A stretch of DNA of 64,000 nucleotides from Vicinamibacteria bacterium (GCA_963668695.2 CAXXLQ010000004.1:896001-960000), one strand, 5' to 3'. Positions 8,564 through 59,624 are shown, numbered from the stretch's first letter. Notes: generated by a model not told the origin, from the letters alone. Numbers and translations: made by a program.

Positions 8564-9090
8564 GCGCACCAGCCAGTTAACAACCTGTGGTGAAACCCAC
8601 GCGGCCCAGTTCTCCCGGTGGGGGCTCGAGCGGCGATCCATCCCGCCTGAACCGCCCCCCCACCGGGAGAACTGGCGCTTTGCGGCGCTCTGCGTTGCGT
8701 TTCGGTCGAAATACACCCGGGCCAGTTCTCCCGGTGGGGGCTCCTCCCTCACGCGCCTTGTCAGCCGGGCGCCTCGCCCCCACCGGGAGGACTGACCGCT
8801 CTCGGCGCTCACCCGGGTTCCACCACCGGCTGTTGGAGCGCGACTACCAGCGGGAATCCAGGGGGCCGGCATCGCGTGCATCTCCCGACGCCAGCGTGGC
8901 GCCCCTCGTGGAAGCCCTCGCCAACGATCAGCCCTTGGAACCTCGGTGCCACGACCATGCCCTCAGCGGCGGGTGGGCTGATCATCGCGACTGCCACGTG
9001 AGGCCCGACCTGGTGTTGATCTACCAAAAGCCCGACGCAGAGACGTTGCGGCTCGTTCGCCTTGGGTCACATTCCGAACTCGGATTCTGA
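8550..9090 (+). pseudogene. yafQ: YafQ family toxin interrupted by MITE copy B
   Basis: Removing 8581-8836 restores MRTIERTSQLKRDY...DHALSGGW...RDCHVRPDLVLIY...LVRLGSHSELGF. Confidence 0.88.
8581..8832. mobile_element. MITE copy B (252 bp, four micro-element copies)
   Basis: TIRs CAACCTGTGGTGAAACCC / GGGTTCCACCACCGGCTG; flanks TTAA/TTGG. Confidence 0.88.
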
Positions 9091-9149
9091 ACGTCCCGAG
9101 CGCGCCCCAGGCTGGCTCGACGCCGTCCGACTCGACGACGGTCGTCCGC

Positions 9150-9749
9150 TCAGAGAGCGCTGCGGTGTTGCAGCGCCTCCGCCATGGTGGTCTCGTCGGT
9201 GTGGACCAATTCGCTTCCCATCGGGATGCCGATTCCGATGCGAGTCACCCGAATGCCCTGAGGCTTCAACAGGTGCGCCAGCCAGGCGGCGGCCGCCTCC
9301 CCGTCGTGGGTGGGATTCGTGGCCACGATCACTTCTTCGAAGTGGCCGTCGCGGACCCGCTGGAGCAGGCTGGCCAGGCTGCGCTCTTCCTCCGGATCTC
9401 CGTGAGGGGGGAAAGCGATGCCGCCCAGCACGTGGTACCGACCGTTGAAGATCTTCGCTTTTTCGACGGCCTCGATGTCTGCCGGATCCTCGACGACGCA
9501 GAGCACCGCGTCGTCGCGGCTCGAGTTCCTGCAATAAGCGCAGGGCTGGGCATCGGCGAAGTTGCCGCACACGCGGCACCGGGACACCCGGTCATGCAGG
9601 GTGGACGCGGCAGCTCCGAGGGCTTCGGCACGCTCCCGTCCTCCCTGGAGCAGGTGGAACGCGATTCGCTGCGCGGATTTTTCCCCGATCCCCGGGAGTC
9701 GCCTCAGCTCACCGATGAGTCGTGACAGCGGCTCCGGCAGGCCGCTCAT
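9150..9749 (-). CDS. recR: recombination mediator RecR
   Basis: LPGIGEKSAQRIAFHLL, C4 zinc finger, TOPRIM motif EVIVATNPTHDGE. Confidence 0.96.
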   Translation of the reverse strand: MSGLPEPLSRLIGELRRLPGIGEKSAQRIAFHLLQGGRERAEALGAAASTLHDRVSRCRVCGNFADAQPCAYCRNSSRDDAVLCVVEDPADIEAVEKAKIFNGRYHVLGGIAFPPHGDPEEERSLASLLQRVRDGHFEEVIVATNPTHDGEAAAAWLAHLLKPQGIRVTRIGIGIPMGSELVHTDETTMAEALQHRSAL

Positions 9750-10048
9750 TTACCGCCGGTGAGCTGTCCGAGTTCTTCGAGCGAACCCAGCCTTTCCTGC
9801 ATCTGCTGCTCGATCTTCCGGGAGGCGTCATTGATCGCCGCCTTCACCAGGTCCTCGAGAAGTTCCACGTCACCGGAACGCACCGCTTCCGGGTCGATCG
9901 TCACCCGCCGCACCTGGCGGGCGCCATTCATCCGCACCTTGACCATGCCGCCACCGGCGGCTCCTTCACCCTCCAGGGACTCGATCTGCCGCTTGAGCTT
10001 GCGGAGCTGTCCCATCTGCTGGGTGACCTGGTGAATTTTCGAAAACAT
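9746..10048 (-). CDS. ybaB: YbaB/EbfC nucleoid-associated protein
   Basis: GAAGGGMVKVRMNG...VTIDP...DVELLEDLVKAAINDA; lies between dnaX and recR. Confidence 0.93.
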   Translation of the reverse strand: MFSKIHQVTQQMGQLRKLKRQIESLEGEGAAGGGMVKVRMNGARQVRRVTIDPEAVRSGDVELLEDLVKAAINDASRKIEQQMQERLGSLEELGQLTGGK

Positions 10049-10125
10049 CGCTCGTTTTCCTCCTTCGCACCGGAACTTCCGTCCCGGGACGACAATGGAC
10101 TTTCCTGAGTATGGCTTACCCCTAG

Positions 10126-10477
10126 CAACCTGTGGATAAAGTGACGTGAGTACCGAGACCGGTGAGGCGCCCGGCTGACAAGGCGCGTGAGGGAGGAGCC
10201 CCCACCGGGAGAACTGGCCCGAGTGTATTTCGACCGAAACGCAACGATGAGCGGCGCGCAGCGACGCGGTGAACAGCCTGTGGTGGAACCCACGTGAGCG
10301 CCGAGGTTGGCCAGTTCTCCCGGTGGGGGGGCGGTTCAGCCGGGATGCATCGCCGGTCGCTTCCGGAGCGGGGCGCCAGCACCGCGGAGACCCCGGAGCG
10401 GAAGAGACGGGGGACGGGGGCACCCGACCCCCATCTCTTCTGGCTCGGGAATGCCGCGTGACTTTGTCCACAGGCTG
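10126..10477. mobile_element. composite MITE copy C (DnaA-box TIR variant, internal nested end)
   Basis: CTAG duplication at 10122-10125 and 10478-10481; TIR CAACCTGTGGATAAAGT / ACTTTGTCCACAGGCTG; second left end at about 10274. Confidence 0.85.
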
Positions 10478-12091
10478 CTAGTGCTCCGATTCCAAGGGGG
10501 ACTCTCCCGGCAGAGGCCTCGCCGAAACGATAGTGCCTCCGAAGGTCTTCTGATACTTCTCGACAATGGGGGGTGGAGCCAGGTCGAGCAAGCCGCTGCT
10601 TCCGGACGCCGTTGATTCGGCCGTTAACTCGGAAGGGGCCTGGGATGGGGCTGGAGAAGCGGGGGTGGGCGATTTCGCCGGAGGGGAGCCGCTACCGCCG
10701 GTGTTCGGCGCCGCCGTCTTGGCGCCAGGCTGGTCAAGCTGCTCGAGAAGGCGGTCGAACGCGGCCAGGCGCGGCATTTCGACCAGTCGCAGCAGCGCCA
10801 TCTCGAGGTGGAACCTGGGCTCGGGGGACCAGCGCAATCCGTCTTCGATCCGGGTGAGGACATCGAGGCTCCGCAGCAGATCTTCCTCGCTGAAGCGGTC
10901 CGCGAATTCGGCGAGCCGCTCGCGCTCCTGCGGCCACTCCAGGAGGTCGGGCCGGTCGGGCGCCACCCGAACCACCGTGAGGTCCCGCAGGTAGTGCATG
11001 AGCAGGGTGACGAAGTGCTTCAGATCCCGGCCCTCGCTCACGAGTTCCTCGACGATTTCGAAGACCGCCCGGCGGTCTCCTTCGACGATCGCTACGCTGG
11101 CGCGGCGGCAGATCTGCACGTTCGGAACCCCGATCACCTCACTCACATCCTCGGCGGTGACCGCTCCGTCCACCGCCGCGATCACCTGGTCGAGCGCCGA
11201 TAGCGCATCCCGGAGGCTCCCCTGCCCGAACCGGGCGATCTGGGCCAGGGCCTCCGGCGCGACCTCGAATCCCTGATCGTCCGCGATGTGACGCAGCCGT
11301 TCGACCACGACCCGCTGGGTCACGGCGCGGAATTCGAACTCCTGACAGCGCGAGAGGATGGTGTCCGGGATTCGATGGATCTCGGTAGTGGCGAAGATGA
11401 ACTTGACGTGGGGAGGGGGTTCCTCGAGCGTCTTCAGGAGCGCGTTGAAAGCGCCCCCGCTCAGCATGTGGACTTCGTCCACCAGAAAGATCTTGAACCG
11501 GTCGCGCGACGGGGTGTAGTGCGCGGTCTCGATGATTTCGCGCGCCTTTTCCACGCTGTTGTTGCTCGCGCCGTCGATCTCGGGCACGTCCCGTGAATAA
11601 CCGCCGGCAATCTCGCGGCAGGAAGGACACGTTCCGCAGGGCTCCGGATTCGGGCCTTCGCCGGCCGAGCAGTTGAGCGCCTTCGCGAGAATCCGGGCGG
11701 TGGTGGTCTTTCCCACCCCCCGAGGCCCGGCGAACAGGAATGCGTGCCAGATACGGTTCTTCCGGATCGCGTTCTGAAGAGTGCGGGCGATCGCCTCCTG
11801 CCCCACCAGGTCCGCGAAGGTCTGGGGGCGGTAGCGCAGCGCCAGCACCTGGTAGTCGTCGGCGCGCGCAGAGGAAGGCGTCTTCGGGGTCGCCGCCGAG
11901 TCACCGGCGACGGGCGCCGGATTCTGCGGTTCGCTGGCCGGCGCATCCGCCGCGGCAGTCGGTTCGGGCGGGATCTGCCCCTCGGCCTCGCTCACGATTC
12001 CGGCTTCCTGCACCGCCGGCTCCACGTCGTTCGCGGGCGGCTGCGGATCAGGGCCGGGCGGACCGCCGAACAGGCCTCCGGGAGGACTCAT
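10478..12091 (-). CDS. dnaX: DNA polymerase III subunit gamma/tau
   Basis: YQVLALRYRPQTF, GPRGVGKTT, DEVHML, SRC motif. Confidence 0.97.
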   Translation of the reverse strand: MSPPGGLFGGPPGPDPQPPANDVEPAVQEAGIVSEAEGQIPPEPTAAADAPASEPQNPAPVAGDSAATPKTPSSARADDYQVLALRYRPQTFADLVGQEAIARTLQNAIRKNRIWHAFLFAGPRGVGKTTTARILAKALNCSAGEGPNPEPCGTCPSCREIAGGYSRDVPEIDGASNNSVEKAREIIETAHYTPSRDRFKIFLVDEVHMLSGGAFNALLKTLEEPPPHVKFIFATTEIHRIPDTILSRCQEFEFRAVTQRVVVERLRHIADDQGFEVAPEALAQIARFGQGSLRDALSALDQVIAAVDGAVTAEDVSEVIGVPNVQICRRASVAIVEGDRRAVFEIVEELVSEGRDLKHFVTLLMHYLRDLTVVRVAPDRPDLLEWPQERERLAEFADRFSEEDLLRSLDVLTRIEDGLRWSPEPRFHLEMALLRLVEMPRLAAFDRLLEQLDQPGAKTAAPNTGGSGSPPAKSPTPASPAPSQAPSELTAESTASGSSGLLDLAPPPIVEKYQKTFGGTIVSARPLPGESPLESEH

Positions 12092-12124
12092 GAGACGGAG
12101 AGACTAACGCCAGCGAAGTCGCGA

Positions 12125-12304
12125 GGATGCTTCAAGAGGGAGCCACCCGCCAGCGCGGTTTGCCGTCGCGCCGATCAGCGTTCTCGCCTTCGTCTGTCGA
12201 GGGGAAAGTCCCCCGTCACCACCCTGATTGGCTCGTGCGGGATTCCGGTTGCCCGAACCGCAGCCTTCGTGTCGACCCGAGCCGTAGCGGGGTAGCATTC
12301 CCCG
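12125..12304 (-). ncRNA. candidate structured RNA upstream of dnaX (unassigned)
   Basis: Stem GCCAATCAGGGT/ACGCTGATCGGC enclosing hairpin GGGGACTTTCCCC, plus further hairpins; no canonical SRP motif. Confidence 0.35.
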
Positions 12305-12318
12305 TTCCGCCGGAACCC

Positions 12319-12405
12319 GGAGGGGTGCAAGAGTGGCTGAATTGGCCAGCCCGGAAAGCTGGTGTACCGGCAACGGTACCGTGGGTTCGAATCCCACCCC
12401 CTCCG
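12319..12405 (+). tRNA. tRNA-Ser (GGA), long variable arm, CCA not encoded
   Basis: GGAGGGGTGCAAGAGTGGCTGAA...CCAGC-CCGGAAA-GCTGG...GGTTCGAATCC...CCCCTCCG. Confidence 0.93.
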
Positions 12406-12414
12406 CTCGGTCGA

Positions 12415-12494
12415 GGGGTCCGGAAGGGGGCGCCCGATTGAGATTGTGGTTGGGGCTTGATCGGTTGGGAGGTGGGCGCCCCCTTCCGGACCCC
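12415..12494 (+). repeat. perfect 21-bp inverted repeat downstream of tRNA-Ser (terminator or processing hairpin)
   Basis: GGGGTCCGGAAGGGGGCGCCC at 12415-12435 and its reverse complement at 12474-12494. Confidence 0.75.
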
Positions 12495-12511
12495 CCGGCG
12501 CTTCGCGCCGG

Positions 12512-12662
12512 AATCGCAAATCCCTCCGGGATTCGCGATTCGAGCTGTTTGATTGTGAAAGGGGGGCGGTAGCCCCCCTTTCACACTTTCCCCCCGGTCT
12601 CGCGGGCAGCGAACAAAGTTCGCTGCCATTTGTTTTTTCAGGTCCGGCAGTACACGCGCTGG
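12512..12662. repeat. dispersed palindromic repeat (~150 bp), copy 1
   Basis: AATCCCTCCGGGGATTCGC...TTGTGAAAGGGGG...ACTTTCCCCCGGTC...GCAGCGAACAAAGTTCGCTGCC; similar to 22720-22866. Confidence 0.8.
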
Positions 12663-12750
12663 CGCAAAGGCCAGGGAACGCCGACCTCCTGGTCGGCATC
12701 GCGCGGGAGCGCGAAACCAGGGCTGATGACGCTGCGCTCCGCCGACGTGA

Positions 12751-13485
12751 GTGTCCCACCCTCTCACAATCCCGGATGGTGCGACCGCTCACCGCCTCCT
12801 GCAGCGAAAGCGTGCCGTGCTGCGATGGTGTTGGGCGCATGGCTACGTCGAGCAGAACGTGGCCGGGGAAGGAATCGAGGGCGCGCTGCCGGCCATGCCG
12901 GCCGTCAAGGCGCACTTCCGGGCGCTGCCGTACCAGGAAGTAGCGGCGGCGCTTGAAACCGTGGATGGGTCGAAGGCGAGCAAGGCGGCCAAACTTTGCC
13001 TCCGGTTCCTGATCCTGACGGCGGCTCGATCCGGAGAAGCGCGGGCCGCGACTTGGGCGGAGGTGGACTTCGAGGCGAAGGAATGGCGGATTCCCGGTGA
13101 GCGAATGAAGGGAGGCCGGGAGCATCGCGTCCCGCTGAACCGTGCGGCGCTGGTCGTTCTTGAGCGGGCGCGAGTACTGGACGAGGGGAGCGGGCTGATC
13201 TTCCCGTCGCCGCAGGGGCCGGGCCGGCCCCTCTCCCCGATGACCCTGACGAAGATTCTGCGAGATCAGGGGCTTGCGGAACGGGGGACCGTTCACGGCT
13301 TCCGCAGCTCGTTTCGCGATTGGTGCGCCGAGACCGGAAAGCCTCGGGAGGTCGCCGAAGCCGCCCTGGCCCACACGGTCGGGGGAGTCGAGGGCGCGTA
13401 TTTTCGCTCTGACTTGTACGCGCGTCGGCGGGTGCTCATGGACCAGTGGGCCGCGTTCCTCACGGGGCGGAGGGGAAGGTGGTGA
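12751..13485 (+). pseudogene. P4-like tyrosine integrase, N-terminally truncated
   Basis: LILTAARSGE, MKGGREHRVPL, HGFRSSFRDW, LAH and AYFRSDL catalytic motifs; arm-binding domain absent; next to tRNA. Confidence 0.85.
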
Positions 13486-13655
13486 GGTTCCGTGCCTGAC
13501 CTTGACGCGCTGAAGGCTCGCATACGTCAGCACCCGGCTTTCCGAGGCGGGCCAGCCGACGGAAACCTACTGGCTCAACCTTCTGGAGGTCACGCTCGCT
13601 GAGTCTTTGGCTCGGGTCCACGAGTCGCGCCGGACACCGGTTATGGTGAACACCC

Positions 13656-14138
13656 ATGAAGCAATGCCAGAAAAAGCTGTGCAGCGCAGCAGGCGTGGTT
13701 TTCCTCGCTTTGTTCGGCGCATGGACAGCGTGCAATCCCGATTCCCCGAACACGTCCGCGACGCAGGAGGCGCAACGAGCCGGGGCATCGAATACGGACT
13801 GGCTCGGGGAAGTGGACACTTCAACACTCCCGGGGCTTCTGGCGGTCCTCGATGAAGCCTCCATCGAGCGAGTCAACGCGATCCTGCAAGACGAGCGGGA
13901 TCCGACTTGGCGAGAGCAACTTGTGAGCGGCGAGCTGACGGCTGATCTCGAAGAGTTGCATTACTGGCGCGGCCTGGCGCGCGCGGACGTGACGACCCCG
14001 CTGACCGATGCGGAAGCGGCGTACTTGGAACATGCGCGCAACCGGGCTTCGACCTTCCAGGACATACTCTTGGAGCAGCACGGTGATCCCGCGCTACGCG
14101 AGCTGTTGGGAAAAGCACCGGGGGAGGTTCAGGACTAG
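13656..14138 (+). CDS. hypothetical lipoprotein
   Basis: Hydrophobic leader with WTAC lipobox-like motif. Confidence 0.55.
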   Translation: MKQCQKKLCSAAGVVFLALFGAWTACNPDSPNTSATQEAQRAGASNTDWLGEVDTSTLPGLLAVLDEASIERVNAILQDERDPTWREQLVSGELTADLEELHYWRGLARADVTTPLTDAEAAYLEHARNRASTFQDILLEQHGDPALRELLGKAPGEVQD

Positions 14139-14232
14139 GGCTGGGCCGTAACAACATCCGGACCAAGCTGGGACTGCGGCGGGCCGAGAGCCTGCGGCGG
14201 CTATCTGCTCTCGATCCGCTGAACGCGCGGAC

Positions 14233-14900
14233 TCACCCGCCCTTCGGGAAGATGCAGCGCAGCAGGTCGATGTCTTCCCACAGCACCGCTTCCGCATCCG
14301 GCCTGGTGACGGTGGTGAGCGGAACGGACATTTCGACTCCCCCTGGCCGCGCAAACTCGGGTCTACCTCCGTGTCGTGGTTGAACCCGAACAGATGGATG
14401 ATTTCGTGCAGGGTGACGGCGTCCATGTACTTGCCGTCGTGCGTCCGGGGGTGTTCTTCGCACTCCGGACACCAATCCGTCACTAGGCTCGGGGTGTAGT
14501 AGAACTCCGCGCACTGCGGGCTGGCCTAGGCGCCAGACTCCCGGGCGGTCGAGTAGTAGCCTTGGATCTGGCCCCGCTCCGGCCGAAGCACGCAGTCGTC
14601 CGGGCTCGCTCCTGCGGGCCACGCAACTACGTCACCCACTTGCAGAATTCGGTAGCCGAGCTGGCGTTCGATCTTCTCGTCCAGCAGCTCGACGGGTTCG
14701 AGTAGCCGGGCAAGGCCCGCCTCCGTTACGGAATCCGGGAAGCTGCGGACCATGTCCACGCGGAACGGCCCCGTGCCCTCGCAGCCGCCGGGGCGCCGCC
14801 TGCATGACAGCTCCCCAGCAGGCGGACAGCGCCCTAATCGCTGCGATCGACAGCTACGCGACTGACGCTGCCCTTCGACTCGCCCCCGACAGCCTCGTCC
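14233..14900 (-). pseudogene. fragmented zinc-metallopeptidase-like protein
   Basis: TLHEIIHLFGFNH (HExxHxxGxxH) in ORF 14094-14483; neighbouring segments in other frames with stops. Confidence 0.5.
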
Positions 14901-14940
14901 TGGGGGGTGCAGGTGGCCGCCGAGTTCGTGGCTGTCCCAG

Positions 14941-15209
14941 CAGCCTGTGGTGAAACCCACGTGAGCGCCGAGACCGGCCAGTTCTCCCGGTGGGGGCGAG
15001 GCGCCCGGCTGACAAGGCGCGTGAGGGAGGAGCCCCCACTGGGAGAACTGGCCCGGGTGTATTTCGACCGAAACGCAACGATGAGCGGCGCGAAGCGACG
15101 CGGTTCAGCCGGGATGGATCGCCGGCCGAACGCCGCGTGGGTTTCACTACCGGTTGTTTGGCCGGGATGGATCGCCGGTCGAACGCCGCGTGGGTTTTGC
15201 CACCGGCTG
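14941..15209. mobile_element. MITE copy D (two tandem right ends, unmatched flanks)
   Basis: CAGCCTGTGGTGAAACCC left end; right ends at about 15156 and 15209; flanks CCAG/TTAA. Confidence 0.85.
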
Positions 15210-15312
15210 TTAAAACCGTGGATGGGTCGAAGGCGAGCAAGGCGGCCAAACTTTGCCTCCGGTTCCTGATCCTGACGGCGGCGCGATCCGGGGAGGCGCG
15301 GGGCGCGACTTG
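15210..15312 (+). repeat. ~100-bp duplicate of an integrase internal segment (12953-13055)
   Basis: AAACCGTGGATGGGTCGAAGGCGAGCAAGGCGGCC...GCGACTTG nearly identical at both positions. Confidence 0.9.
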
Positions 15313-15339
15313 TCGTATTTTTGTATACACTGGCCTGAC

Positions 15340-15765
15340 ATGAAACGAAGTCGGAATCGGACTCTTGAGGAGCGTATCGCGCTGCGTATTCAGCGCCAGA
15401 AGGCGAGGAATGTTTTCGTGCGGAGCGACTTTCGGGATCTGGGTGGCTACGACCAGGTTGGTCGTGGCTTGAAGCGGTTGGCCGACGGGGACCGACTCGT
15501 GAGAATCGGCTACGGGCTCTATGCCCGGTCCGCGACCGCCCCGATTTCTCGTGCCACGGTCCCGCAACAGCCACTCCCGATGCTCGCGGCCGAGGCACTC
15601 GACCGGTTGAAGGTGAAAACGGCGCCGTCAACATTTGACCGAGCCTATAACGAAGGGACCTCGACCCAGGTTCCTACCGGCCGGGTGATCGGTGTCAAGG
15701 GCCGCTTCTCACGCAAGATCCGCTACGGTGGGCAGAACATCGTCTTTGAGCGCTCTTCCGGATAA
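15340..15765 (+). CDS. DUF6088/AbiEi-like winged-helix antitoxin (orphan)
   Basis: VFVRSDFRDLGGYDQVGRGLKRL...LVRIGYGLY...YNEGTSTQVP. Confidence 0.72.
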   Translation: MKRSRNRTLEERIALRIQRQKARNVFVRSDFRDLGGYDQVGRGLKRLADGDRLVRIGYGLYARSATAPISRATVPQQPLPMLAAEALDRLKVKTAPSTFDRAYNEGTSTQVPTGRVIGVKGRFSRKIRYGGQNIVFERSSG

Positions 15766-15909
15766 TGGCTAGCCAGGCGAGGGCTCCCAACGTCGCAACG
15801 GCCACGACCAGGAAGACCCACGGAGTGGCATGGACCCCGGGGACGGCGGCGGCTTGACCGGACGCGACGCGCAGCCGTACGCTGCCCGCATCAGTCCCTG
15901 ACAGTCGTA

Positions 15910-17646: not shown

Positions 17647-17708
17647 AGCCCCGCGTCGAGGGGCCCGTCGGGGCCGGCTCGCCCGTGAGAGGGGGGCCGG
17701 TACCACTT

Positions 17709-19140: not shown

Positions 19141-19314
19141 GGCTTCGTTTCCTTTCCGTCAGGATCCGGTGGTCCTGGCAGCCGCGCTCGCCACGACGGC
19201 GCTCGCCGCGGACCGCAAGGCTCAACGAGTCAGGATGACGACGCGGAAGGGCGATTGCAAGCGACGGATCAACGCGAATGTCCACCTCGTCCTGGCGCGC
19301 GAATTCCCGGCACG

Positions 19315-19406
19315 TGTCGCCAAATCACCCGGTAGATTATCGCCATATCACCCGCTGGACTATCGCCAAATATCCCTGTAAACTGTCGCCGAATCACCCC
19401 GTGGAC
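19315..19406 (+). repeat. 4 x 23-bp degenerate direct repeats upstream of AAA+ gene
   Basis: TGTCGCCAAATCACCCGGTAGAT / TATCGCCATATCACCCGCTGGAC / TATCGCCAAATATCCCTGTAAAC / TGTCGCCGAATCACCCCGTGGAC. Confidence 0.85.
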
Positions 19407-19453
19407 GGCCCCTCCGCGGTGCCTCGGAGGCGATACGGCTGCCAAACCCGATC

Positions 19454-20710: not shown

Positions 20711-20790
20711 AAGTTCCTCTGCGCGGGTTGGGGGTTGCCGTCTTCCCGGCGGTTCCAGAAGATATCCCTCAGAAGCAGGAGGATGACGCG

Positions 20791-22883: not shown

Positions 22884-23160
22884 AAACGCCGACCTCTGGG
22901 CAGTCCTCCCGGTGGGGCCCGGCACAGCCCGCCGAAGGCGGGCGGGAGCGCGTACGGCTGATCAGGCAGATGGCGCGCAGGCGGGGGAAACCGCGCAACG
23001 CCGATCGTGAGACAGCGCGCGAACGGCTTGGAACGCCGACCTCCGGGCAGTCCTCCCGGTGGGGCCCGGCACACGCTGACCCACGCGCCGTCTCATCTGT
23101 TGGGGGTACGTGCCGAGACGAAAGCCATCTCAACGGTTGGGGTCTTCGCCGCCGCGGCCC
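22884..23160. repeat. REP-like cluster with micro-elements and a 77-bp module
   Basis: AACGCCGACCTCYGG...CCGGCAC palindromes; module 23084-23160 repeated at 23987-24063. Confidence 0.8.
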
Positions 23161-23986: not shown

Positions 23987-24240
23987 CGCGCCGTCTCATC
24001 TGTTGGGGGTACGTGCCGAGACGGGAGCCATCCCAACGGTTGGGGTCTTCCCCGCCGCGGCCCTGCGGGCCGCGGTGCCGGCCGGAGGCCGGCGTTCCAA
24101 GCCGTCCCCGCGCTTCTGCTCAAGCGGCAGTACGCGGTTTCGCGGCCCTGTCGGCCGCGGTGCCGGCCGGAGGTCGGCGGACAAGCCGTCCCCGCGCTTT
24201 TGCTCAGGTGGCGGTTCGCGGTGCCGACCGGTTTCGCGCG
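23987..24240. repeat. REP-like cluster
   Basis: GTGCCGGCCGGAGGYCGGCG and AAGCCGTCCCCGCGCTTYTGCTCA repeated twice. Confidence 0.8.
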
Positions 24241-32202: not shown

Positions 32203-32626
32203 TACGTCCGCGGGCATTGCAATTGCTGAAGAGGGCGGGTAGAGAATATGGAACGTCACGATTGCCGACCGGGGTCGGCGCTCCCAGCCGTCCCCGTCGT
32301 CTGGCGTTGACGGAGCGGTGGAAGCGCGTTCGTATGACGGAGCGTTGTTGGAGCGGATTTCGCGCTCCTACGCGATGCCGATCTGAGGCGCCCCACCGGG
32401 GGAACTGACCGGCGTTCCGAGCCGGTGGCGATATCCGGGGGCAGGAAGATTGTGCATTCGCCCGCCTTGGGCGGGCGGTGCCGGTGTGAACACCGGCGGT
32501 CCCTGACTGGCAGGCCACCTTCCTTGGGTGGGCATGGCGCGGCTCTCTTCGCTGTTTCGTGAACTGCGGCCGAGGGGGCCGCACAACATTGGCGACGGTC
32601 GAGGGGCGGGACGGGCCTGCCACCGA

Positions 32627-36127: not shown

Positions 36128-36680
36128 GTTCCGCCCGCCTCCGGCGGGCGGTGCCGACCCCCACTGGGAGAACTGGCCAGAGGTCGGCGGTCCAGGCCGT
36201 CCCCGCGCTTTTTTCGCGGCTGGCGGTGCGCGGTTTCGACCGCCTCTCGGCGGTCGATGCCGGTCGGAGACCGGCGCTCCGCTGTCGCGCGCGCTCCACG
36301 CGGTTCGGGGGTACGCGGTTCCCGGGCCTGCGCGCCACCCTGTCCTCCGGGGTACGCGCCGAGAAAGGAGCCATCCCGACGGTCAGGGTCCACGCCGCCG
36401 CGGCCCTGCGGGCCGCTGTGCCGGGCCACCGGGAGAACTGCCCGGAGGTCGGCGTTCCAAGCCGTCCCCGCGCTTTTGCTCAGTCGGCGGTACGCGGTTT
36501 CGACCGCCTCTCGGCGGTCGATGCCGGTCGGAGACCGGCGCTCCGCTGTCGCGCGCGCTCCACGCGGTTCGGGGGTACGCGGGGTTTCAAGCCGTCCCCG
36601 CGATTCTTCTCGCTCGGCGGTACGCCCTCCGCGGCGCTACGCGCCGCGGTGCCGGTGTGAACACCGGCGGCCGATTTGAA
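36128..36680. repeat. REP-like cluster with an internal ~130-bp direct duplication
   Basis: GCCGGTCGGAGACCGGCGCTCC twice; 36196-36318 resembles 36461-36580; two micro-elements. Confidence 0.82.
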
Positions 36681-36754: not shown

Positions 36755-36952
36755 CAGCCTGTGGTGAAACCCACGTGAGCGCCGAGGCTGGCCAGTTCTC
36801 CCGGTGGGGGCGAGGCGCCCGGCTGACAAGGCGCGTGAGGGAGGAATACCTGGTGTATTTCGACCGAAACGCAACGCAGAACGGAGCGAAGCGGAGTGGT
36901 TCAGCCGGGATGGATCGCCGGTCGAACGCCGCGTGGGTTTTGCCACAGGCTG
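36755..36952. mobile_element. MITE copy E (198 bp)
   Basis: Perfect CTAG duplication; TIR CAGCCTGTGG / CCACAGGCTG. Confidence 0.92.
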
Positions 36953-41211: not shown

Positions 41212-41377
41212 GCGCCAGTGCAGAGTTCTACGTTCGGCACTACGTAGGGCGACAGCGCTTCACCGCCTCGGTGGCCTGCGGCCACCGGTGCCGGTCTGAA
41301 GGCCCCCACCGGGAGAACTGGCGGCGTTCCCTTCACCTGGGTTTTGCCACCGCGTGGCTCCTGCGGGGGGTGCTGCC
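41162..41377 (+). repeat. 43-bp direct repeat flanking a 130-bp insert
   Basis: ACCTGGGTTTTGCCACCGCGTGGCTCCTGCGGGGGGTGCTGCC at 41162-41204 and 41335-41377. Confidence 0.9.
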
Positions 41378-42193: not shown

Positions 42194-42380
42194 ACAAAGT
42201 AGCGCGGCGTTCGACCGGCGATGCATCCCGCCTGAACCGCTTCACTTCGTTCCGCTCATCGTTGCGTTTCGGTCGAAATACACCAGGTATTCCTCCCTCA
42301 CGCGCCTCGTCAGCCGGACCCCCACCGGGAGAACTGGGCCTCACCGATCTCGGCGCTCACGCCACTTTATCCACAGGCTA
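42184..42380. mobile_element. MITE copy F (197 bp, DnaA-box TIR variant)
   Basis: Flanks TTAG/CTAG; TIR CAGCCTGTGAACAAAGT / ACTTTATCCACAGGCTA. Confidence 0.88.
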
Positions 42381-48006: not shown

Positions 48007-48109
48007 ATCTTCTTTCTCCTTGAGATTGCATGAGTTTCTTGTTGCTTGAAGGTCACTTTCGCGTCGCGGGCCACATGTCCCGGCGCGGCGGCCGCTGCGC
48101 TCCTGGCGC

Positions 48110-49400: not shown

Positions 49401-49437
49401 CCACCCGAAGAGCGCCATTTCTGTCCGGAAGCGGGCA

Positions 49438-52531: not shown

Positions 52532-52706
52532 TCTAGCAGCGCCCACCGGCGGACCGGCGCTCAGAAGACGATCCGCAGACCGAGCTGGGCTCGCCGCTGG
52601 GCGCCCACCCGGGCGGACCCGAGCCCGAACTCGGGATTCGGCGCCCCGTCATCAAGCACCGGCTCCTGCTGGTCGGAGCCCGACACCCGGAAGGTCGCGG
52701 TGTTAA

Positions 52707-52885
52707 CAGCCTGTGGTGAAACCCAGGCGGCGTTCGAGCGGCGATGCATCCCGGCTGAACCGCGTCGCTTCGCGCCGCTCATCGTTGCGTTTCGGTCGAA
52801 ATACACCAGGTATTCCTCCCTCACGCGCCTTGTCAGCCGGGCGCCTCGCCGCTCTCGGCGCTCACCCGGGTTCCACCACAGGCTG
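52707..52885. mobile_element. MITE copy G (179 bp, minimal form, no micro-element)
   Basis: Perfect TTAA duplication; TIR CAGCCTGTGGTGAAACCC / GGGTTCCACCACAGGCTG. Confidence 0.95.
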
Positions 52886-53309
52886 TTAAGCACATTGAAG
52901 ACCTCGAACAGCGCTTCGAGTTGAGCGCCGCCCAGGTCAAAGCGTTTCGTGAGCCGGAAATCGAAGTTCGTCCAGGCGTCGTTGCGCTCGCCGTTCACCG
53001 GCGCGAGCTCGCCGCCGACGACCGCACGCGTCTGAGGGCCGTAGGGGCCGACGTAGAAACCCGGGTGGTTGTGGAAGCCCACCGCCGGGTCCGGCGCGGT
53101 GTAGGGGGATCCCGACTGGGCGGTCAGGATGCCGCTCACCAGGATGTCGAGCGGAAGGGTGAAGATCCCGCTCGCCACGAAGCGGTGCGGAATGTCGCGG
53201 CTCGAGAGGCCCCAGTCGTAGTCGGGATCCGCAGGATCGGTGAGGGTCAGATCCCCGGAGGAGCGTTCGTTGTCGTCGTTGGAACGGTCGCGGGACCAGG
53301 TGTAGTGGG

Positions 53310-53369
53310 CCTGGAACTGCCTGGAACTGCCTGGAACTGCCTGGAACTGCCTGGAACTGCCTGGAACTG
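53310..53369. repeat. 10-bp tandem repeat x6
   Basis: (CCTGGAACTG)6. Confidence 0.97.
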
Positions 53370-53802
53370 GATGCCGTCCCGGAAGCGCCGCCGGAGGGCC
53401 GCGGTGAGCGCCACGTAGTCCGAACGCGCCAGCGCGTCCCGCACCAGGATCGTCCCGTAGTTCGGGTCGATCCGCTCCCCGGAATAGACCGGGCGGCCGT
53501 GGGCGTCCCGCGAGGGCGCCGGTACGGGCTCTGGCCGCGCTCGAGGTCCACAAGTTCGACGTTCACGCCCGGCGCGGCAGCGCCGCTGCGTCAGTGACGA
53601 AACTCTGCACCGTGGAGAGCGATTGCACGGCGCCCGCCGGACCGGCGATCGAAAGGGCCGGCGCGAGGCCGGCGATCAAGGATTTGGCTTTGGACACTGT
53701 CACTCCTGCGACGCGATCCGGAGAAGGGGAACCCCCACTCAGCCCGCGCGGCGCCGGTATCCTCGACTCGGGACGGTTCCAATTCAAGGGAAATCGCAAG
53801 AC

Positions 53803-54576
53803 ATGTCGAACAACAACAGATTGGATCACCGGGTCGCCGTGGTAACCGGCGCTGCCGCCGGGATCGGCCGGGCTACCGCGGAACTCTTTGCCGAAGAGGG
53901 CGCCCAAGTCGTGCTCGCTGACATCGCCGGGGAGGCGCTCGAGCGGGTGGCCGCCGCGATTCGCGATTCGGGTGGGTCGGCGACAGCGGTGGTCGCCGAC
54001 GTTTCCACAGAAGAAGGCGTCGAGACGACCGTGGGGACCGCGGAGCGCGGGTTCGGCCCGGTGGATGTCCTCGTGAACAACGCGGGCGTCGAACTGAAGA
54101 AGCTCGTCGAGGACACGAGCCTCGAGGAGTGGAACCGCATCCTTCGTACGAACCTGACGTCGGCGTTCCTGATGTCCCGCCGGGTGGTGCCCGGCATGAA
54201 GGAGCGGCGGCGCGGCGCGATCGTCATGAACTCGTCGGTCGGGAACTTCATCGCGGCGACCAGGAGTTCCGCTTACGGGGCGTCGAAGGCCGGAATGATG
54301 GCGCTCGCGCGGGGACTGGCGCTCGAGGGCGCGCCCTACGGAATCCGGGTGAACGCGGTTTGCCCTGGCGTCATCGACACCCCGATGAACGAGCGGAATC
54401 TGGCGCGGACCGAGGATCCGGAGGCGATGCGCCGTTCCTGGTACGACGTCACACCGCTCGGGCGGCTCGGCACCCCGCGCGATGTCGCCCAGTCCATCCT
54501 CTTCCTGTCGTGCGACGAATCGAGCTTCGTGACGGGGTTGCCGCTGGTTATCGACGGCGGCCGATTGATCCAGTAA
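53803..54576 (+). CDS. short-chain dehydrogenase/reductase
   Basis: TGAAAGIG, NNAG, YGASK, IRVNAVCPG. Confidence 0.92.
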   Translation: MSNNNRLDHRVAVVTGAAAGIGRATAELFAEEGAQVVLADIAGEALERVAAAIRDSGGSATAVVADVSTEEGVETTVGTAERGFGPVDVLVNNAGVELKKLVEDTSLEEWNRILRTNLTSAFLMSRRVVPGMKERRRGAIVMNSSVGNFIAATRSSAYGASKAGMMALARGLALEGAPYGIRVNAVCPGVIDTPMNERNLARTEDPEAMRRSWYDVTPLGRLGTPRDVAQSILFLSCDESSFVTGLPLVIDGGRLIQ

Positions 54577-54625
54577 CGTATTCGTTACTATTAGCACAAT
54601 CCCATAGAGTAACGAATACGTTACT
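54572..54625. promoter_or_regulatory. pair of 18-bp palindromic operators
   Basis: AGTAACGTATTCGTTACT and its exact reverse complement AGTAACGAATACGTTACT. Confidence 0.75.
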
Positions 54626-54635
54626 ATGCGAAGTC

Positions 54636-54956
54636 GTGATCCGGCGCACGTTCCGCAAGTCAATTCGCGCCCGCGCCGTCCGGGATCCGGCGTTTCGGTC
54701 CTCGCTGCTGGAATCCGGCTTCGACGCGCTGCTGGCCGGAGATCTCGCCGCGTTTCGCAGCGGCCTCCGCACCTATGTGAACGCGACGCTGGGGTTTTCT
54801 CGCCTCGCGGATCGCACCGGCATCCCGGAAAAGAGCCTGATGCGCATGCTGGGGCCGAACGGCAACCCCCGGGCGGCCCACCTGGCAACGCTGATCGGGG
54901 CGATCTCGGAGCACGAAGGGGTCGAAATCTCCGCCCGCATCACCGAACCGGAGTAG
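54636..54956 (+). CDS. HTH addiction-module antidote-like regulator (orphan)
   Basis: RARAVRDPAFR...YVNATLGF...IPEKSLMRMLGPNGNPRA. Confidence 0.78.
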   Translation: MIRRTFRKSIRARAVRDPAFRSSLLESGFDALLAGDLAAFRSGLRTYVNATLGFSRLADRTGIPEKSLMRMLGPNGNPRAAHLATLIGAISEHEGVEISARITEPE

Positions 54957-54976
54957 GAAGGGAACGCCCCGATTGT

Positions 54977-55012
54977 TTGACACGAAGTTCGTGTTTTCGT
55001 ATTCTCGTGTCA
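54977..55012 (+). promoter_or_regulatory. sigma70 promoter and operator, probably leaderless transcript
   Basis: TTGACA-17 bp-TATTCT-6 bp-ATG; palindrome ACACGAAGTTCGTGT. Confidence 0.75.
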
Positions 55013-55335
55013 TGAGGAACATCACCATCACGCTGCCTGAGGAATGCGCCCGTTGGGTGCGCGTGCGCGCCGCCCAGGAAGACCGCAGCGTCTCGCGCTG
55101 GCTGGCCGAGCTCCTCGACGGGATGCGCCGTCGAGAAGACGACTATGACGCCGCCATGGAACGCCTGCTGGCGATCAAGCCTCAGAAACTGAACTGGATC
55201 GCCGGACGAAGACCCACCCGGGAGGAGATCTACGACCGGCCGATTCTGCATCGCGACCGGACACCGGTCGCCGAACCGGCCGCCAAGGGTGAAACCGAAG
55301 AGAAGCCGGAGTCCGAGGCGGCGCAAGTTCCGTGA
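55012..55335 (+). CDS. vapB: ribbon-helix-helix antitoxin
   Basis: MRNITITLPEECARWVRVRAA...SVSRWL...TREEIYDR. Confidence 0.82.
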   Translation: MRNITITLPEECARWVRVRAAQEDRSVSRWLAELLDGMRRREDDYDAAMERLLAIKPQKLNWIAGRRPTREEIYDRPILHRDRTPVAEPAAKGETEEKPESEAAQVP

Positions 55336-55793
55336 TCGGTCCCGTCTTCGTGGACATCAACGTCCTCGTCTATTGGCAGGACACCTCGGACCCGGTGAAG
55401 CAGTCCCGCGCGGGAGACTGGGTTGACCTGGTTTCCCGGAGTCGGTCCGCGCGGACGAGCGGCCAGATCCTCGTGGAGCTCTATTCGACGCTGACGCGCA
55501 AACTGCAGGGGTTCAGCACCGAAAAAGCGCAGCGGATCGTTCGCGGCGTCGCCGCCTGGCGGCCCGTGGCTCGGGATCTGGCGCTAATCGAGCGCGCCTG
55601 GCGCCTGCAGGAGCGCTATGCGCTCTTGTGGTGGGACGCGCTCATCGTCGCGGCGGCGCAGAGCAGCGGGTGCGCCGTCCTGCTGACGGAAGACCTCCAG
55701 CACGGCCAGCGGCTGGGGGAGGTCACGGTGATCAACCCGTTCCGCTCACCCGAGAGGACCCCCGCCGAAGTGCTGGAGGCACTCGCCGCGTAG
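55332..55793 (+). CDS. vapC: PIN-domain toxin
   Basis: VFVDINVLVY, WDALIVAAA, LLTEDLQHG, INPF. Confidence 0.9.
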   Translation: MIGPVFVDINVLVYWQDTSDPVKQSRAGDWVDLVSRSRSARTSGQILVELYSTLTRKLQGFSTEKAQRIVRGVAAWRPVARDLALIERAWRLQERYALLWWDALIVAAAQSSGCAVLLTEDLQHGQRLGEVTVINPFRSPERTPAEVLEALAA

Positions 55794-55801
55794 TGCGCGC
55801 C

Positions 55802-57482
55802 ATGCGGCTCGGAAGCGCGGAAGCGTGGGCGCTCGGGGTTTCGACGGTCGTGGCGTGCGGCGCGGGTGCCTCCTGCTTTCCGGATGGCGGCCGCCACGCC
55901 GACCTCGTCGTCCTGGATGCCAACGTCCTCACCGTGGACGCGGACTTCACCGTGGCCGAAGCCCTGGCGGTCCGGGACGGTCGGGTCCTGGCCGTAGGTT
56001 CGGACGCGGACATCCGGAACCTCATCGGACCGGACACCGAAGTCATTGAAATGGCGGGTAAAACGGTCGACCCCCGGCCTCGCCGACAATCACCTTCACG
56101 GCGCCGGCGGCGGGGACGGCGTGGACCTCTCCCGGGTCCGCACCATGGACGAGCTGCTCGGGGCGATCGCCGAACGCGCCCGGACCTCCGGCCCCGGCGA
56201 ACTGGTCGCCACGAACTCCGACTGGCACGAGGGGCAACTTCAGGAGCAGCGGCTCCCCCTGCGGCGGGATCTCGACGAGGCGGCGCCGGGAAACCCGGTG
56301 GTCGTGGTCCGGGGCGGCCACGAGTACATCCTGAACTCGCAGGCCCTCGAGAAGTGGGGCATCACCACCGATACCCCGGTCCCGGACGGCGGGCGCGTCA
56401 CCCGCTATCCGGACGGCGCGCTGAACGGGGAACTGGTGGACACCGCCAAGCGGCTCGTCACCATGCCGGAGCGCCCGTCCCGGGATCTCGAAACCCGCAT
56501 CCGGGACCAGGTCGAGGAGTACCGGACCCTTCACTCCGTGGGCCTGACCAGCGTCCGTCATCCCGGGAGCGGCATCGAGCAGTTCCGGCTGCTCGAGGAG
56601 ATGAAGCGGCGGGGATTGCTCACCATGCGGGTGACCTTCCTGATGCGCATGCGCGCTCGCACCGCGGATGAGGTGGACGCCGCGCTCGCTGCATGGGATC
56701 TCGAACCCCAGCAGGGCGACGAATGGCTACGCCTCGGCGGGGTGAAGCTGGGCGTGGACGGGGGATTCGAGGGCGGCCTGATGCGCGAGCCGTACGAGGA
56801 ACCCTGGGGACAGGGAGGAACGTTCCACGGGCTCCGGACGATGCCGCAGACGGCGTTCAACGAAGTCGTGGTTCGCCTGGCCGAGAAGGGCTGGCGGGTA
56901 GCCACCCACGCGGTGGGGGACCTGGCGATCGACCAGGTGCTGGAAGGCTACGTGGCCGCCAACGAGGTGGCGCCGCTCGCGGGCAAGCGCTGGGCAATCG
57001 AGCACGGGTTCATCCCTCGTCCCGACCATTTCCCGACCATCAACCGGCTCGGGTTGCTGGTCGCCGGCCAGCACCACCTCTATCTCGCCGGTCCCAGCCT
57101 CGAGAAGTACTGGGGCCGGGAACGGGCCGACTGGACGACCCCGATGCGCGCCTATCTGGACGCCGGGGTGATGGTCTCGGCCGGCACCGACGCGCCGGTC
57201 GTGCCCTATCCGCCCCTCTGGGTGCTGCACCACTTCGTCACCCGCGAGACGATCAGCGGCGGGGTGTTCGGGGAGGATCAGCGGGTGAGCGTGGAGGAAG
57301 GCCTCCGACTCCTCACCGAAAACGTCGCCTACCTGAACTTCGAGGAAGACCTGAAAGGCTCCCTCGAACCCGGGAAGCTGGCCGACTTCGTGGTCCTCTC
57401 AGCCGATCCCCGCGAGGTCCCCGCGGACGAGATCCAGGTGGAGATGACGGTGGTGGGCGGGCGAAACGGTGTTCGGCGCTGA
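55802..57482 (+). CDS. amidohydrolase 3 (YtcJ-like), frameshift near 56070
   Basis: ADLVVLDANVLTVD, PGLADNHLH, KLGVDG, HAVGD, KGSLEPGKLADFVVL. Confidence 0.85.
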
Positions 57483-57487
57483 ATCGC

Positions 57488-59624
57488 TCAGGGGGCGCTG
57501 ACCGAAACCGCAGCGCGCGCCATGGCGATCCCGGAGGCCGAAGCCATCGCGTCGTAGTAGCCGACAAAGCGCCGGGTTTCCGGGGCGTCGTAGGGGCGCA
57601 GGTTTTCGGCCCAGCGGTATCCGATGGACTGATACCAGAGGGCCACCTCCACGGTGAGCGGGCCCCGGGCCCCGGCCAGATCCACCGAGTAGCGGACCCG
57701 ATCCCCGCCGGCAGCGAAGTCCGCGTCCGCGCCGGCGCGCCCGTGGACCGCGATGTCCGGCCCGGCGGCCGCCTTGTCGAACCCGGTGGGTAGCAGCCGG
57801 TTGTCCTTGACGTAGCGCACGCCGTGGAGGAGGCCCGTCGTGACCGCATCGGTGCTGTCAACCAGAATGGATTCGTAGATCTGGACCTCACCGGCCTCGG
57901 TGATCGCTTCGTAGTGCGGTTCGTAGGCGCGGGGGTTGGCGTCGTTGTCGTTGCCCTCGATCTGCCCGTCCGGGCCGAGGGCCCCCGATTGGAAGAGAAC
58001 TGCTCCGCCCGCATCGCGGACCGTCAACTCCAGCCAGACCCGCCGTGACGGGTAGGCGGTCGGCAGCTTGTGACCGGCGAGGCTTTCGATGACGACCTCA
58101 GCTTCGAGACGGCCCGCTTCGATCCGCGCACCCTCGATCCGGACGCGGGCGCTTTCCTTTTGCAGATGCTCGCGGGCATCCCGGGCCGCGAGCTCCAACT
58201 CCTGCGGCAGGGCTTCGACGCCGAGTTCGGTGCGGTAGCGCAGGAGCATCCGCAACATGAAGGCGTTGCCGCCGCGGAACGAGTGCCGCGAAAGACCCTC
58301 CCGTTCCTCGCCGAGCACCGAACTGATCGGCGCCGGCGTCTCGACCTCCGGCATGTGGCAGTCCTGGCAGGACTGCCGGGTCCGATAGTCGCTCGCGAGC
58401 CACTCCTGATAGGGCGTCTGCTCGGGCAGTTCGCCGATGACCTCGCCGTCCGGCCCCAGCGCGTGGGTGATCAGGGTGTGGCAGGTGGCGCAGAGTTCCG
58501 AATCCTGAATGTGCGAAGCCTCGGTCTGCCGAAAACCCGTCGTCGACTGCATCAGCCGGATCCGGTTGTCCTCGATCTCGAAGGGGCCGAAGATGGCCCG
58601 CTCGCCGTCGGGCCGCTCGGTGTCAATCCGGAAGTTGCCGGTGAGGCTCGCCTCGGTCCCCAGCCCCTCGTCGGTGATCTGGTGGCAAAGCGCGCAGGAC
58701 ACGCCGTCCGCGGCGAGCAGGCCCTGTGGGGTGGAGGCCGAACCGATCGGCAGGTGTTCGAAAACGGTCCCGAGGCCGCCGCCGGCATTCGCCTGGTAGC
58801 GGGCCATCGGCATGTGGCACTTGGAGCATTCATCCTCGATGGCGGCGGCGGCTTCCGGATGGTCCATCGTTTCGCGCCGGACCGCCGCTTGCCAGTACGG
58901 ATCGCGCGCCGAGTTGGCCATCATGGAGGCCCGCCAGTCGAATCCGATCGAGACGTCCTCCCCGGTGGCAGTGGTGAGTCCGTTGTGACAGGCGAGGCAG
59001 GATTGGCTGGTGGTGAACAGATCCGCGGTGTGGACAGCGCGGGGCTCCGACTGGGCGGCGGCCGAAAACCCGGGCGAGCGGATGGCCAGGAGACCCAGCG
59101 CCCCCAGGACGATTCCCAGCGGTAACAGCCTGTGGTGGAACCCGGGTGAGCGCCGAGGTGGGCGAGGCCCAGTTCTCCCGGTGGGGCCAGTTCTCCCGGT
59201 GGGGGCCCGGCTGACAAGGCGCGTGAGGGAGGAATACCTGGTGTATTTCGACCGAAACGCAACGATGAGCGGCGCGAAGCGACGCGGTGAACAGCCGGTG
59301 GTGGAACCCACGTGAGCGCCGAGGCCGGGGAGGCCCAGTTCTCCCGGTGGGGCCAGTCCTCCCGGTGGGGGCCCGGCTGACAAGGCGCGTGAGGGAGGAG
59401 CCCCCACCGGGAGAACTGGCCCGCGTGTATTCCGACCGAAACGCAACGATGAGCGGCGCGAAGCGACGCGGTTCAGCCGGGATGGATCGCCGGCCGAGCC
59501 CCCACCGGGAGAACTGGGCCGCGTGGGTTTCATCACCGGTTGTTTGGCCGGGATGGATCGCCCGCCAGCCCCCACCGAACTGGGCCGCCTGGGTTTCAGC
59601 ACAGGCTGTTAACCAGCGAATCAC
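57488..59624 (-). CDS. pentaheme c-type cytochrome; signal peptide interrupted by MITE copy H
   Basis: CLACH, CSKCH, CALCH, CATCH, CQDCH; removing the insert restores MIRWLPLGIVLGALGLLAIRSPGFSAAAQ. Confidence 0.85.
59126..59608. mobile_element. nested MITE copy H (483 bp; inner element 59292-59542; seven micro-elements)
   Basis: Flanks GTAA/TTAA; two left and two right ends. Confidence 0.9.

Follow-up and report, generated by a model that had tools for sequence, protein, structure and literature searches.

Introduction

Among the short repeats described in bacterial genomes, two systems set the frame for this report. Repetitive extragenic palindromic (REP) sequences and REPINs are short extragenic repeats with hundreds to thousands of copies, whose inverted pairs have long hairpins (PMC3116915, PMC3337134). 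The dRS3 repeat of Neisseria is a 20-base-pair (bp) unit whose centre varies between terminal inverted repeats of 6 bp. Its units separate variable modules of 20 to 200 bp in dynamic intergenic mosaics (Neisseria intergenic mosaic elements, NIME), and a larger element integrates into the unit by means of a recombinase that was long only hypothesised (PMC1797815). Here we describe M, a fixed word of 19 nucleotides (nt), CCCCCACCGGGAGAACTGG, which came to notice in a 64,000-nt stretch of a Vicinamibacteria bacterium (GCA_963668695.2, CAXXLQ010000004.1:896001-960000). We call this whole stretch the window and the assembly G000, in which the window is C4:896001-960000. The host belongs to an uncultured lineage of acidobacteria that is apparently associated with sponges or the sea.

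REP/REPIN with its RAYT transposase and dRS3/NIME are nearest to M in behaviour, and M fails the defining features tested for each. M resembles REP/REPIN in copy number, in the persistence of one sequence across related species and, to some extent, in its frequent inverted pairs with long hairpins. Unlike the REP unit, which is an imperfect palindrome, M alone is no palindrome and does not fold. Unlike the dRS3 unit, M is invariant and asymmetric and lacks inverted repeats at its termini. M itself is a genuine 19-nt element with a history of repeated insertion, and elements of its kind have not previously been described in bacteria.

Results

M is added repeatedly at new sites

M has been added repeatedly at new places in one marine family of Vicinamibacteria. 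It enters as a sharp-ended block in either orientation, lengthens the target by a net 18 to 19 nt and replaces 0 to 6 target nt, and its hosts are mostly GC-rich repeats but also single-copy genes. Two insertions of the latter kind were found in relatives of G000. In G012, M lies in frame within mfd (TIGR00580, E 1e-48, 604 residues scanned), where GAGACG has become GGC-M-TG with a gain of 18 nt and 6 nt replaced; 12 of 14 genus genomes have an empty site at this position, and a decayed M is seen there in G010. The second case is coaBC of G010 (TIGR00521, 363 bits, above the cut-off), likewise with M in frame, in which GGACCC has become GA-M(reverse)-GCC, also with 18 nt gained and 6 nt replaced, at a site empty in 13 of the 14 genomes. 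These two insertions cannot be due to recombination between repeats. That the mfd site was hit in both G012 and G010 suggests a site preference. As a separate observation, coaBC of G000 (L241, C4:2098507-2098898) is expanded by 36 to 39 nt of low-complexity, proline-rich sequence immediately upstream of the position that M takes in G010.

A preliminary description of the window, made from its sequence alone, had M replacing 0-3 nt with no consistent target duplication, and lying nowhere in native coding sequence. The absence of a duplication stands, but the replaced stretch reaches 6 nt in mfd and coaBC. Avoidance of coding sequence holds only roughly in G000, where 198 of 1,654 copies fall within open-frame spans by a crude proxy covering 51% of the genome, and it does not hold in the relatives with M inside mfd and coaBC.

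Most copies of M are carried by a miniature inverted-repeat transposable element (MITE), and occupied and empty sites of this MITE were compared between G000 and its closest species, G004 (dnaX 96% identical), of which 880 kilobases (kb) were taken and 621 kb aligned in blocks of at least 1.5 kb. At orthologous MITEs, 21 copies of M were shared, 10 were present in G000 only and 8 in G004 only, and 12 were unresolved; the copy at 10199 of the window (Table 1) is an example of the second class. The presence or absence of M is clean in this comparison, which the preliminary description had proposed as a check. Because the empty alleles hold nucleotides (ATA, AC or A) that are missing from the occupied ones, the occupied state is derived and the empty alleles are no deletion products. 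Within G000, near-identical duplicate stretches (97.5 to 99.9% identity over about 300 kb: C1 = C4:304-421 kb; C3 = C4:3505-3538 kb; C4:9-130 kb = C4:3775-3904 kb) are probably strain haplotigs, in line with the 9.3% 'contamination' figure of this assembly. Over 367,690 nt aligned at 97.5 to 99.6% identity, these haplotigs share 247 M cells and differ at 9, through about 5 events. The MITE backbones of other genera match the G000 consensus at 80.5% (1540/1912) and carry exact M at other sites. This is so even in G020, where there is a single copy.

M was also followed in independent data. It occurs in assemblies from several projects and assemblers, and in all four public runs examined (4 studies) the unique flanks were covered by contigs at ordinary depth, with depth rising by orders of magnitude over the MITE/M region. 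These four runs are short-read contigs that end inside the MITE, with joints unassignable to a locus, and they speak to the existence of M rather than to the occupancy of any locus. Contigs from RNA libraries touch the MITE, which is no demonstration of transcription.

These data bear on the idea that M is an ancestral repeat module that is only being lost, or else an assembly or adapter artefact. That most M copies lie in repeats is all that speaks for it, and we regard it as hardly credible. Loss alone, which the preliminary description had named as a threat to its reading, is excluded by the extra nucleotides of the empty alleles (GAGACG of mfd among them), and M lies at different sites in different genera and in unique genes. 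The artefact, named there as well, is excluded by the independent assemblies and by the contigs of 4/4 runs. The earlier proposal that a fixed word is written again and again is borne out by presence and absence at orthologous repeats, by other sites in other genera and by in-frame copies in unique genes.

Most copies of M lie in two repeat families

We compared the flanks of 1,654 M copies of G000 with the MITE backbone. Both flanks matched in 1,318 copies, one flank in 132 and neither in 204. About 80% of M in this genome lies in one MITE family, and about 150 copies lie in a hairpin family that we call REP-A. The host MITE is 189 nt long, has TA at both ends and 23-bp terminal inverted repeats, and folds as one long hairpin (-57.3 kcal/mol, z -5.3). 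Across 230 simple copies its length is 188.6 nt plus about 18.7 nt for each M; the numbers of copies holding 0, 1, 2, 3, 4 and 5 M are 60, 42, 39, 46, 31 and 12, respectively. There are at least five main sites, each occupied in 20 to 40% of copies, and at sites A and B all combinations of occupancy are seen, including head-to-tail dimers with an 18-nt period. When M is absent, the MITE modules read as one contiguous MITE. The change from empty to occupied is from GGAGGA-ATA-CC to GGAGGA-G-M-C-CC at one site, from AC to G-M near the right terminus and from A to G-M in a third case. The occupied and empty pairs picked out in the preliminary description (ATA to G-M-C, AC to G-M) are real.

The 204 copies outside the MITE formed 40 flank clusters, two large (109 and 42 copies), 10 small and 28 singletons. 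The two large clusters are the two orientations of a single hairpin family, REP-A, of which G000 has about 190 intact hairpins. The intact copy at 24077-24093 folds at -9.6 kcal/mol, and its M-interrupted form folds no better than shuffles. Unlike REP/REPIN, then, M interrupts a REP-type hairpin and destroys it on entry. The intact and the interrupted versions reported earlier were both confirmed. The junctions of M show no target duplication and an ambiguity of 2 to 4 nt.

A preference for hairpin loops was considered for the copies outside the MITE and rejected: by a crude test of flank complementarity, a stem of at least 6 nt spans M in 27/204 copies and in 396/3,000 control positions, with no difference between them. 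The targets have little in common except G/C-rich flanks. Hairpin-forming DNA as a strict target, as first supposed, is thus not upheld, since the flank test equals the control and two insertions lie in ordinary coding sequence.

Some M copies in G018 lie in other arrangements. One locus (L168, G018:C1:61950-62500) is a tandem array with a 44-nt period, whose unit is a REP-like half hairpin plus M. Two near-identical loci (L166 and L167, G018:C1:417250-417600 and 423800-424150) hold an inverted M pair and a partial M, and the pair stands directly after sequence that, read by eye, resembles the end of a ketosynthase domain.

Number, form and distribution of M

The genome-wide count proposed earlier was made on G000 (4.10 megabases (Mb), 4 contigs, 67% G+C, 91.7% complete) and gave 1,655 M copies when up to 3 mismatches were allowed, of which 1,123 are exact and 403, 87 and 42 differ at one, two and three positions, respectively. 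Redundant haplotig contigs account for roughly 7% of this number. Three of the four contigs carry about 400 copies per Mb, and the density in G000 is about one copy per 2.5 kb. Seventeen of the 19 positions are conserved at 97 to 100% and the remaining two at 87 to 88%. A G precedes M in 87% of copies and a C lies two bases downstream in 92%, and the signal collapses within 2 nt on each side; the identical 19-mer stands in at least 20 distinct contexts. A second form with two linked changes (CCCCTACCGGGAGAACCGG) recurs in several genera alongside the main one (G000 C4:631528, 806989 and 814364; also L169, L171 and L173).

Taken singly, M does not fold (-1.4 and -1.9 kcal/mol, z 0.6 and 0.4; 138 and 129 of 200 shuffles fold equally well), and an inverted pair makes a 19-bp stem of -29.2 kcal/mol. 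Start-to-start distances of inverted pairs are 48 nt (147 cases), 51 nt (28) and 55 nt (63), which leaves spacers of 29 to 36 nt. Neighbouring pairs in reverse-then-forward order number 302 at these distances, with MITE backbone as spacer; 262 of 1,654 copies are isolated. Head-to-tail copies with an 18-nt period amount to 72 plus 79 cases. This agrees with what had been seen locally, namely both orientations, inverted pairs 32-36 bp apart and a head-to-tail pair at 59169-59205. Along the G000 chromosome the orientation of M is unbiased, and a strand or replichore bias suspected from a run of '+' matches in G018 was a listing effect. Descent from a tRNA or tmRNA was rejected, as the best of 58 predicted RNAs is still 4 differences away; in an Rfam search of the window, a tRNA was the sole match.

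M is present in 15/15 genomes of the genus and 22/28 of the family, and in none of 16 genomes of two sister families; a reversed control word had zero occurrences in the genomes scanned. Copies per genome range from 7 to 1,526. Numbers of at least 665 occur only in G000 and its close relatives G001, G004 and G008, 11 of 15 congeners hold 7 to 120, and G018, of another genus, has 255. The commonest form is unchanged in every genome. Among the matches listed, exact-M records are named as Candidatus Marinacidobacterium, Vicinamibacteria or Acidobacteria metagenome-assembled genomes, and the two lone hits from other phyla could be due to chance or to binning. The M copies of four M-poor species lie in a variety of repeats, and no flank of at least 400 nt spanning the M site is shared (30 loci of 44 matches); a common 'master' locus in these four genomes was accordingly rejected. 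In the library searched, we found no paper with the M motif or the genus name.

A sequence invariant across genera, with inverted pairs that make strong hairpins and a density as high as that of G000, could be a selected functional tag, such as a protein-binding site or a DNA-uptake sequence, and not itself mobile. We consider this very unlikely. Most congeners have just 7 to 120 copies, 80% of M sits inside one MITE, and sites are not conserved between species. Moreover, selection does not create 18-nt insertions.

XY, a longer element with the ends of M

About 20 non-coding copies were found of a longer element, XY, which opens with the 16 leading nt of M and closes with ..GCAACTGG. These copies are 230 to 380 nt long, have the last 4 to 6 nt in common with M and occupy the same MITE and REP-A sites. 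XY has a hairpin about 20 nt inside either end, an internal REP-A unit and AA at both junctions with the M parts. High numbers of the 5' part of XY are confined to the four M-rich genomes. No family was found by Rfam at E up to 1 for five XY loci. Five G000 and three G004 XY loci were aligned to the other genome and gave no clean occupied/empty case, the intergenic regions being too divergent. An autonomous XY was sought in metagenomes by a 16-mer scan, whose hits were mostly due to chance, and rejected: true relatives, one of them on a metagenome contig, were few and again non-coding.

M might be a recombination or attachment site like dRS3: a site-specific recombinase would exchange or insert segments between copies of M, XY-like elements would integrate into M, and the mosaic MITEs would be cassette arrays. 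The dRS3/NIME account offers this hypothesis for Neisseria (PMC1797815). In possible analogy, M parts modules of the MITE in arrays that differ between G000 and G004, but these modules read as one MITE where M is absent; XY is bounded by two parts of M, but no recombinase was found. M halves adjoining XY are off-consensus more often than free M (about 11/20 versus 13% at the first position), which mildly favours XY having inserted into M over M being a collapsed XY. Chimeric MITEs are joined at M, and a 47-nt MITE-end block stands beside M in G000 and is missing in G004. Nevertheless, we judge an attachment site improbable. The arrival of M at empty sites, in mfd and in coaBC is left unexplained by it, and no recombinase linked to M was found here. 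Unlike dRS3/NIME, M sits in a bona fide MITE backbone with clear empty alleles and also enters coding genes.

How M may reach new sites

According to our proposal, new M sites would arise through a sequence-specific factor that acts in trans and is conserved in the family. This factor would recognise both ends of M and copy or move an existing M, and the same two ends may delimit XY. In G000 it would be no reverse transcriptase, RAYT or TnpB of a known family. High copy number would be reached mainly by riding on the MITE and on REP-A, with frequent recombination or gene conversion between occupied and empty repeat alleles adding to it, to about 1,650 copies in G000 as compared with the much lower numbers of most congeners. 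A dedicated trans-acting factor that recognises the ends of M is a tentative proposal, to which we give somewhat less than even weight. The stronger form would make M the smallest self-propagating piece of DNA so far observed in a cell, with a family-specific protein or nucleoprotein copying the 19-nt word into new sites, genes included, by neither a reverse transcriptase nor an HUH transposase; this we regard as possible rather than probable.

Several observations weigh against the proposal. The replacement of 0 to 6 target nt is unlike clean transposition and resembles repair. The insertion in mfd of G012 has 4 + 3 flanking nt (CGGC..TGC) in common with MITE-borne M of the same genome, which fits untargeted templated copying as well. 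Polymorphisms at MITE orthologues always toggle between two fixed alleles; in one MITE four M differ together and the flanks are unchanged, and in another two M differ along with many flank changes. Gene conversion or replacement among hundreds of MITE paralogues explains such polymorphisms better than fresh insertion. Since the toggling alleles fit gene conversion, truly independent insertions of M are probably tens, not hundreds, and most copies probably owe their spread to the MITE and to recombination among repeats. For M within MITEs of other genera, the identity of 98.7% (469/475) is inflated, as the loci were retrieved through their M matches. No coding XY was found in G000 or in 118 metagenome stretches, most of these being chance 16-mer hits.

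The search for a mover adds to these points. Profile searches of G000 gave no RVT_1 match above the cut-off, nor any reverse transcriptase candidate at first look, no Y1_Tnp or RAYT (NF047646) match and only a sub-threshold hit to the TnpB zinc-ribbon domain. Six tyrosine recombinases are present, one of them in the window (12928-13383), and none is linked to M. One gene of the IS110 family (IS, insertion sequence) scored 134 bits against a cut-off of 140. This IS110 element and a non-coding derivative of about 150 nt (G000 C4:482090-483880 and about C4:1045900) were considered as the mover of M. The element lies in a REP-A hairpin after ..GGAGGTC and the derivative at a like site that is empty in G004. 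It was rejected, as it inserts at a different REP-A position and has different ends.

RAYT was rejected as the mover in G000 as well. It occurs in 13/15 congeners (92.5 bits, above the cut-off) and was not found in G000 or G004; with the RAYT protein of a relative as query, G000, G004, G018, G019 and G020 gave no match. Among eight RAYT loci of relatives (L204-L211, from G001, G008, G009, G010 and G014), seven have no M within 1.5 kb, unlike REP/REPIN-RAYT systems, in which a single-copy RAYT is flanked by its own repeats. The open frame upstream of RAYT holds the peptide motif NAGLQTGT, repeated in L208, which by eye reads as arrays of the REP-A hairpin. Because of this reading, and because M is missing at 7/8 loci, REP-A rather than M looks like the repeat of RAYT. 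In the family, every RAYT-positive genome has M, and six genomes with M have no RAYT match. The preliminary suggestion of a retron-like or HUH/RAYT-type writer is thus not supported by the genes of G000 or by the RAYT loci of its relatives.

A rival account is that no dedicated enzyme is involved. Microhomology-mediated template switching, or illegitimate recombination, would copy M with a few flanking bases into breaks, and ectopic, possibly biased, gene conversion would then spread it. The variable replacement, the ambiguous junctions, the MITE-like flanks in mfd, the alleles that flip between two fixed forms with several M changing together and the absence of a candidate enzyme all agree with this. 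Targets often already hold CCGG(G) or GAGA, both of which also occur within M. However, both ends of M are identical in its many contexts and in several genera, whereas random switching predicts ragged ends and the copying of other abundant sequences too. M has also stayed invariant while its host MITE diverged by about 20%, and it reaches new unique sites in species with only 7 to 14 copies. We hold enzyme-free copying to be a possible but less likely account of M, and retain the end-recognising factor as our working proposal.

M copies in the window

At up to 3 mismatches the window holds 21 copies of M, 11 of them exact, against an expectation of 0.05; none of 100 shuffles reached 21. Two more copies are degenerate, a 17-nt version and one with a 4-nt internal deletion, which gives 23 in total. 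This is the number (about 23) and, apart from 32391, which is corrected to 32390, these are the positions first reported. The hosts are four TA-flanked MITE copies and the GC-rich hairpin repeat REP-A (Table 1). Apart from M, the segment 12319-15210 contains a tRNA-Ser, the tyrosine recombinase mentioned above and adjoining DNA without synteny in G004, G001 or G008; it is probably an integrated island.

Table 1. Copies of M and their host repeats in the window (window coordinates), with example loci of XY (contig coordinates)
Feature	Position	Strand	Remark
Host MITE with four M	8578..8835 (approximate ends)		TA-flanked
M exact, MITE site beside terminal repeat	8606..8624	-	
M exact	8657..8675	+	With the 8606 copy makes a 19-bp-stem hairpin; fold -29.2 kcal/mol, z -6.8
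M exact	8722..8740	-	
M, 2 mismatches	8777..8795	+	
Composite host MITE	10123..10478 (approximate ends)		Whole MITE missing at syntenic site of G001
M exact, MITE site C	10199..10217	+	G004 orthologous MITE empty there (ATA allele)
M exact	10311..10329	-	Common to G004; adjoining 47-nt MITE-end block in G000, not G004
Host MITE, right-end module duplicated	14938..15213 (approximate ends)		
M exact, MITE site A	14978..14996	-	
M, 1 mismatch, MITE site C	15033..15051	+	
M variant, 3 mismatches, in REP-A hairpin	22900..22918	-	
M variant, 3 mismatches, in REP-A hairpin	23047..23065	-	
Intact M-free REP-A hairpin, comparison copy	24077..24093	+	
M variant, 3 mismatches, in REP-A	32390..32408	+	
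M, 1 mismatch, in REP-A hairpin 5' arm	36158..36176	+	
Degenerate 17-nt M in REP-A	36425..36441	+	
M exact	36792..36810	-	
M exact, in REP-A following ..GGTCTGAAGG	41303..41321	+	
M exact	42319..42337	+	
Composite host MITE: two units and extra end module	59123..59612		Whole MITE missing at syntenic site of G004
M, 1 mismatch, first of head-to-tail pair, 18-nt period	59169..59187	-	
M exact, second of 59169 head-to-tail pair	59187..59205	-	
M, 1 mismatch, tandem pair member	59335..59353	-	
M, 1 mismatch, tandem pair member	59353..59371	-	
M exact, MITE site C	59401..59419	+	
M exact, MITE site E	59499..59517	+	
M with 4-nt internal deletion	59569..59583	+	
XY example loci	G000 C4:2157853-2158066, 716625-716901, 125228-125458, others		

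Discussion

M is too short and too asymmetric for a conventional MITE; its shortness had been noted from the start, and its asymmetry and lack of terminal inverted repeats point the same way. Like classical MITEs, the host element is non-coding, occurs in many copies and may be present or missing at a syntenic site. Unlike classical MITEs, M has neither terminal inverted repeats nor a target duplication and is about 10 times shorter. Miniature elements of the IS200/IS605 type carry subterminal hairpins and insert 3' of a fixed tetra- or pentanucleotide by means of a Y1 transposase; M has no hairpin, its left flanks vary save for the G at 87%, and G000 has no Y1 match. Insertion templated by a retron or other reverse transcriptase differs in that no RVT_1 match was found in G000, at 91.7% completeness.

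Two further groups share single traits with M. Rickettsia palindromic elements and the mobile GC clusters or 'byp' elements of fungal mitochondria are palindromic, GC-rich and 30 to 150 nt long, and can sit in frame in genes; we know of no enzyme for them. M is likewise very short, GC-rich and found in frame in genes, but it is 19 nt long and non-palindromic. DNA uptake sequences (DUS; also uptake signal sequences, USS) originate through point mutations, and every member genome is dense in them. Like them, M is a fixed word conserved across a family and often occurs as inverted pairs; unlike them, it comes in as one block, and most congeners have few copies of it.

For these genomes, the finding is a warning that repeat-rich intergenic regions turn over much faster than neighbouring genes. 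It also reveals layered parasitism, with an IS630-like MITE, a REP family with RAYT in relatives, IS110, XY and M in one lineage. If a cell can add a defined block of 18 to 19 nt at many places and needs no known transposase or reverse transcriptase to do so, the minimum size of mobile DNA would be several fold smaller than before, and an enzyme or repair pathway that writes a short fixed payload would await discovery. The material for the search is public: related complete genomes with 7 to 1,500 copies, same-locus alleles and two fresh insertions in housekeeping genes. Should M prove to be the smallest self-propagating element, this would imply a DNA 'writer' of a new class whose payload is fixed at 18 to 19 nt, with XY as a larger passenger on the same ends.

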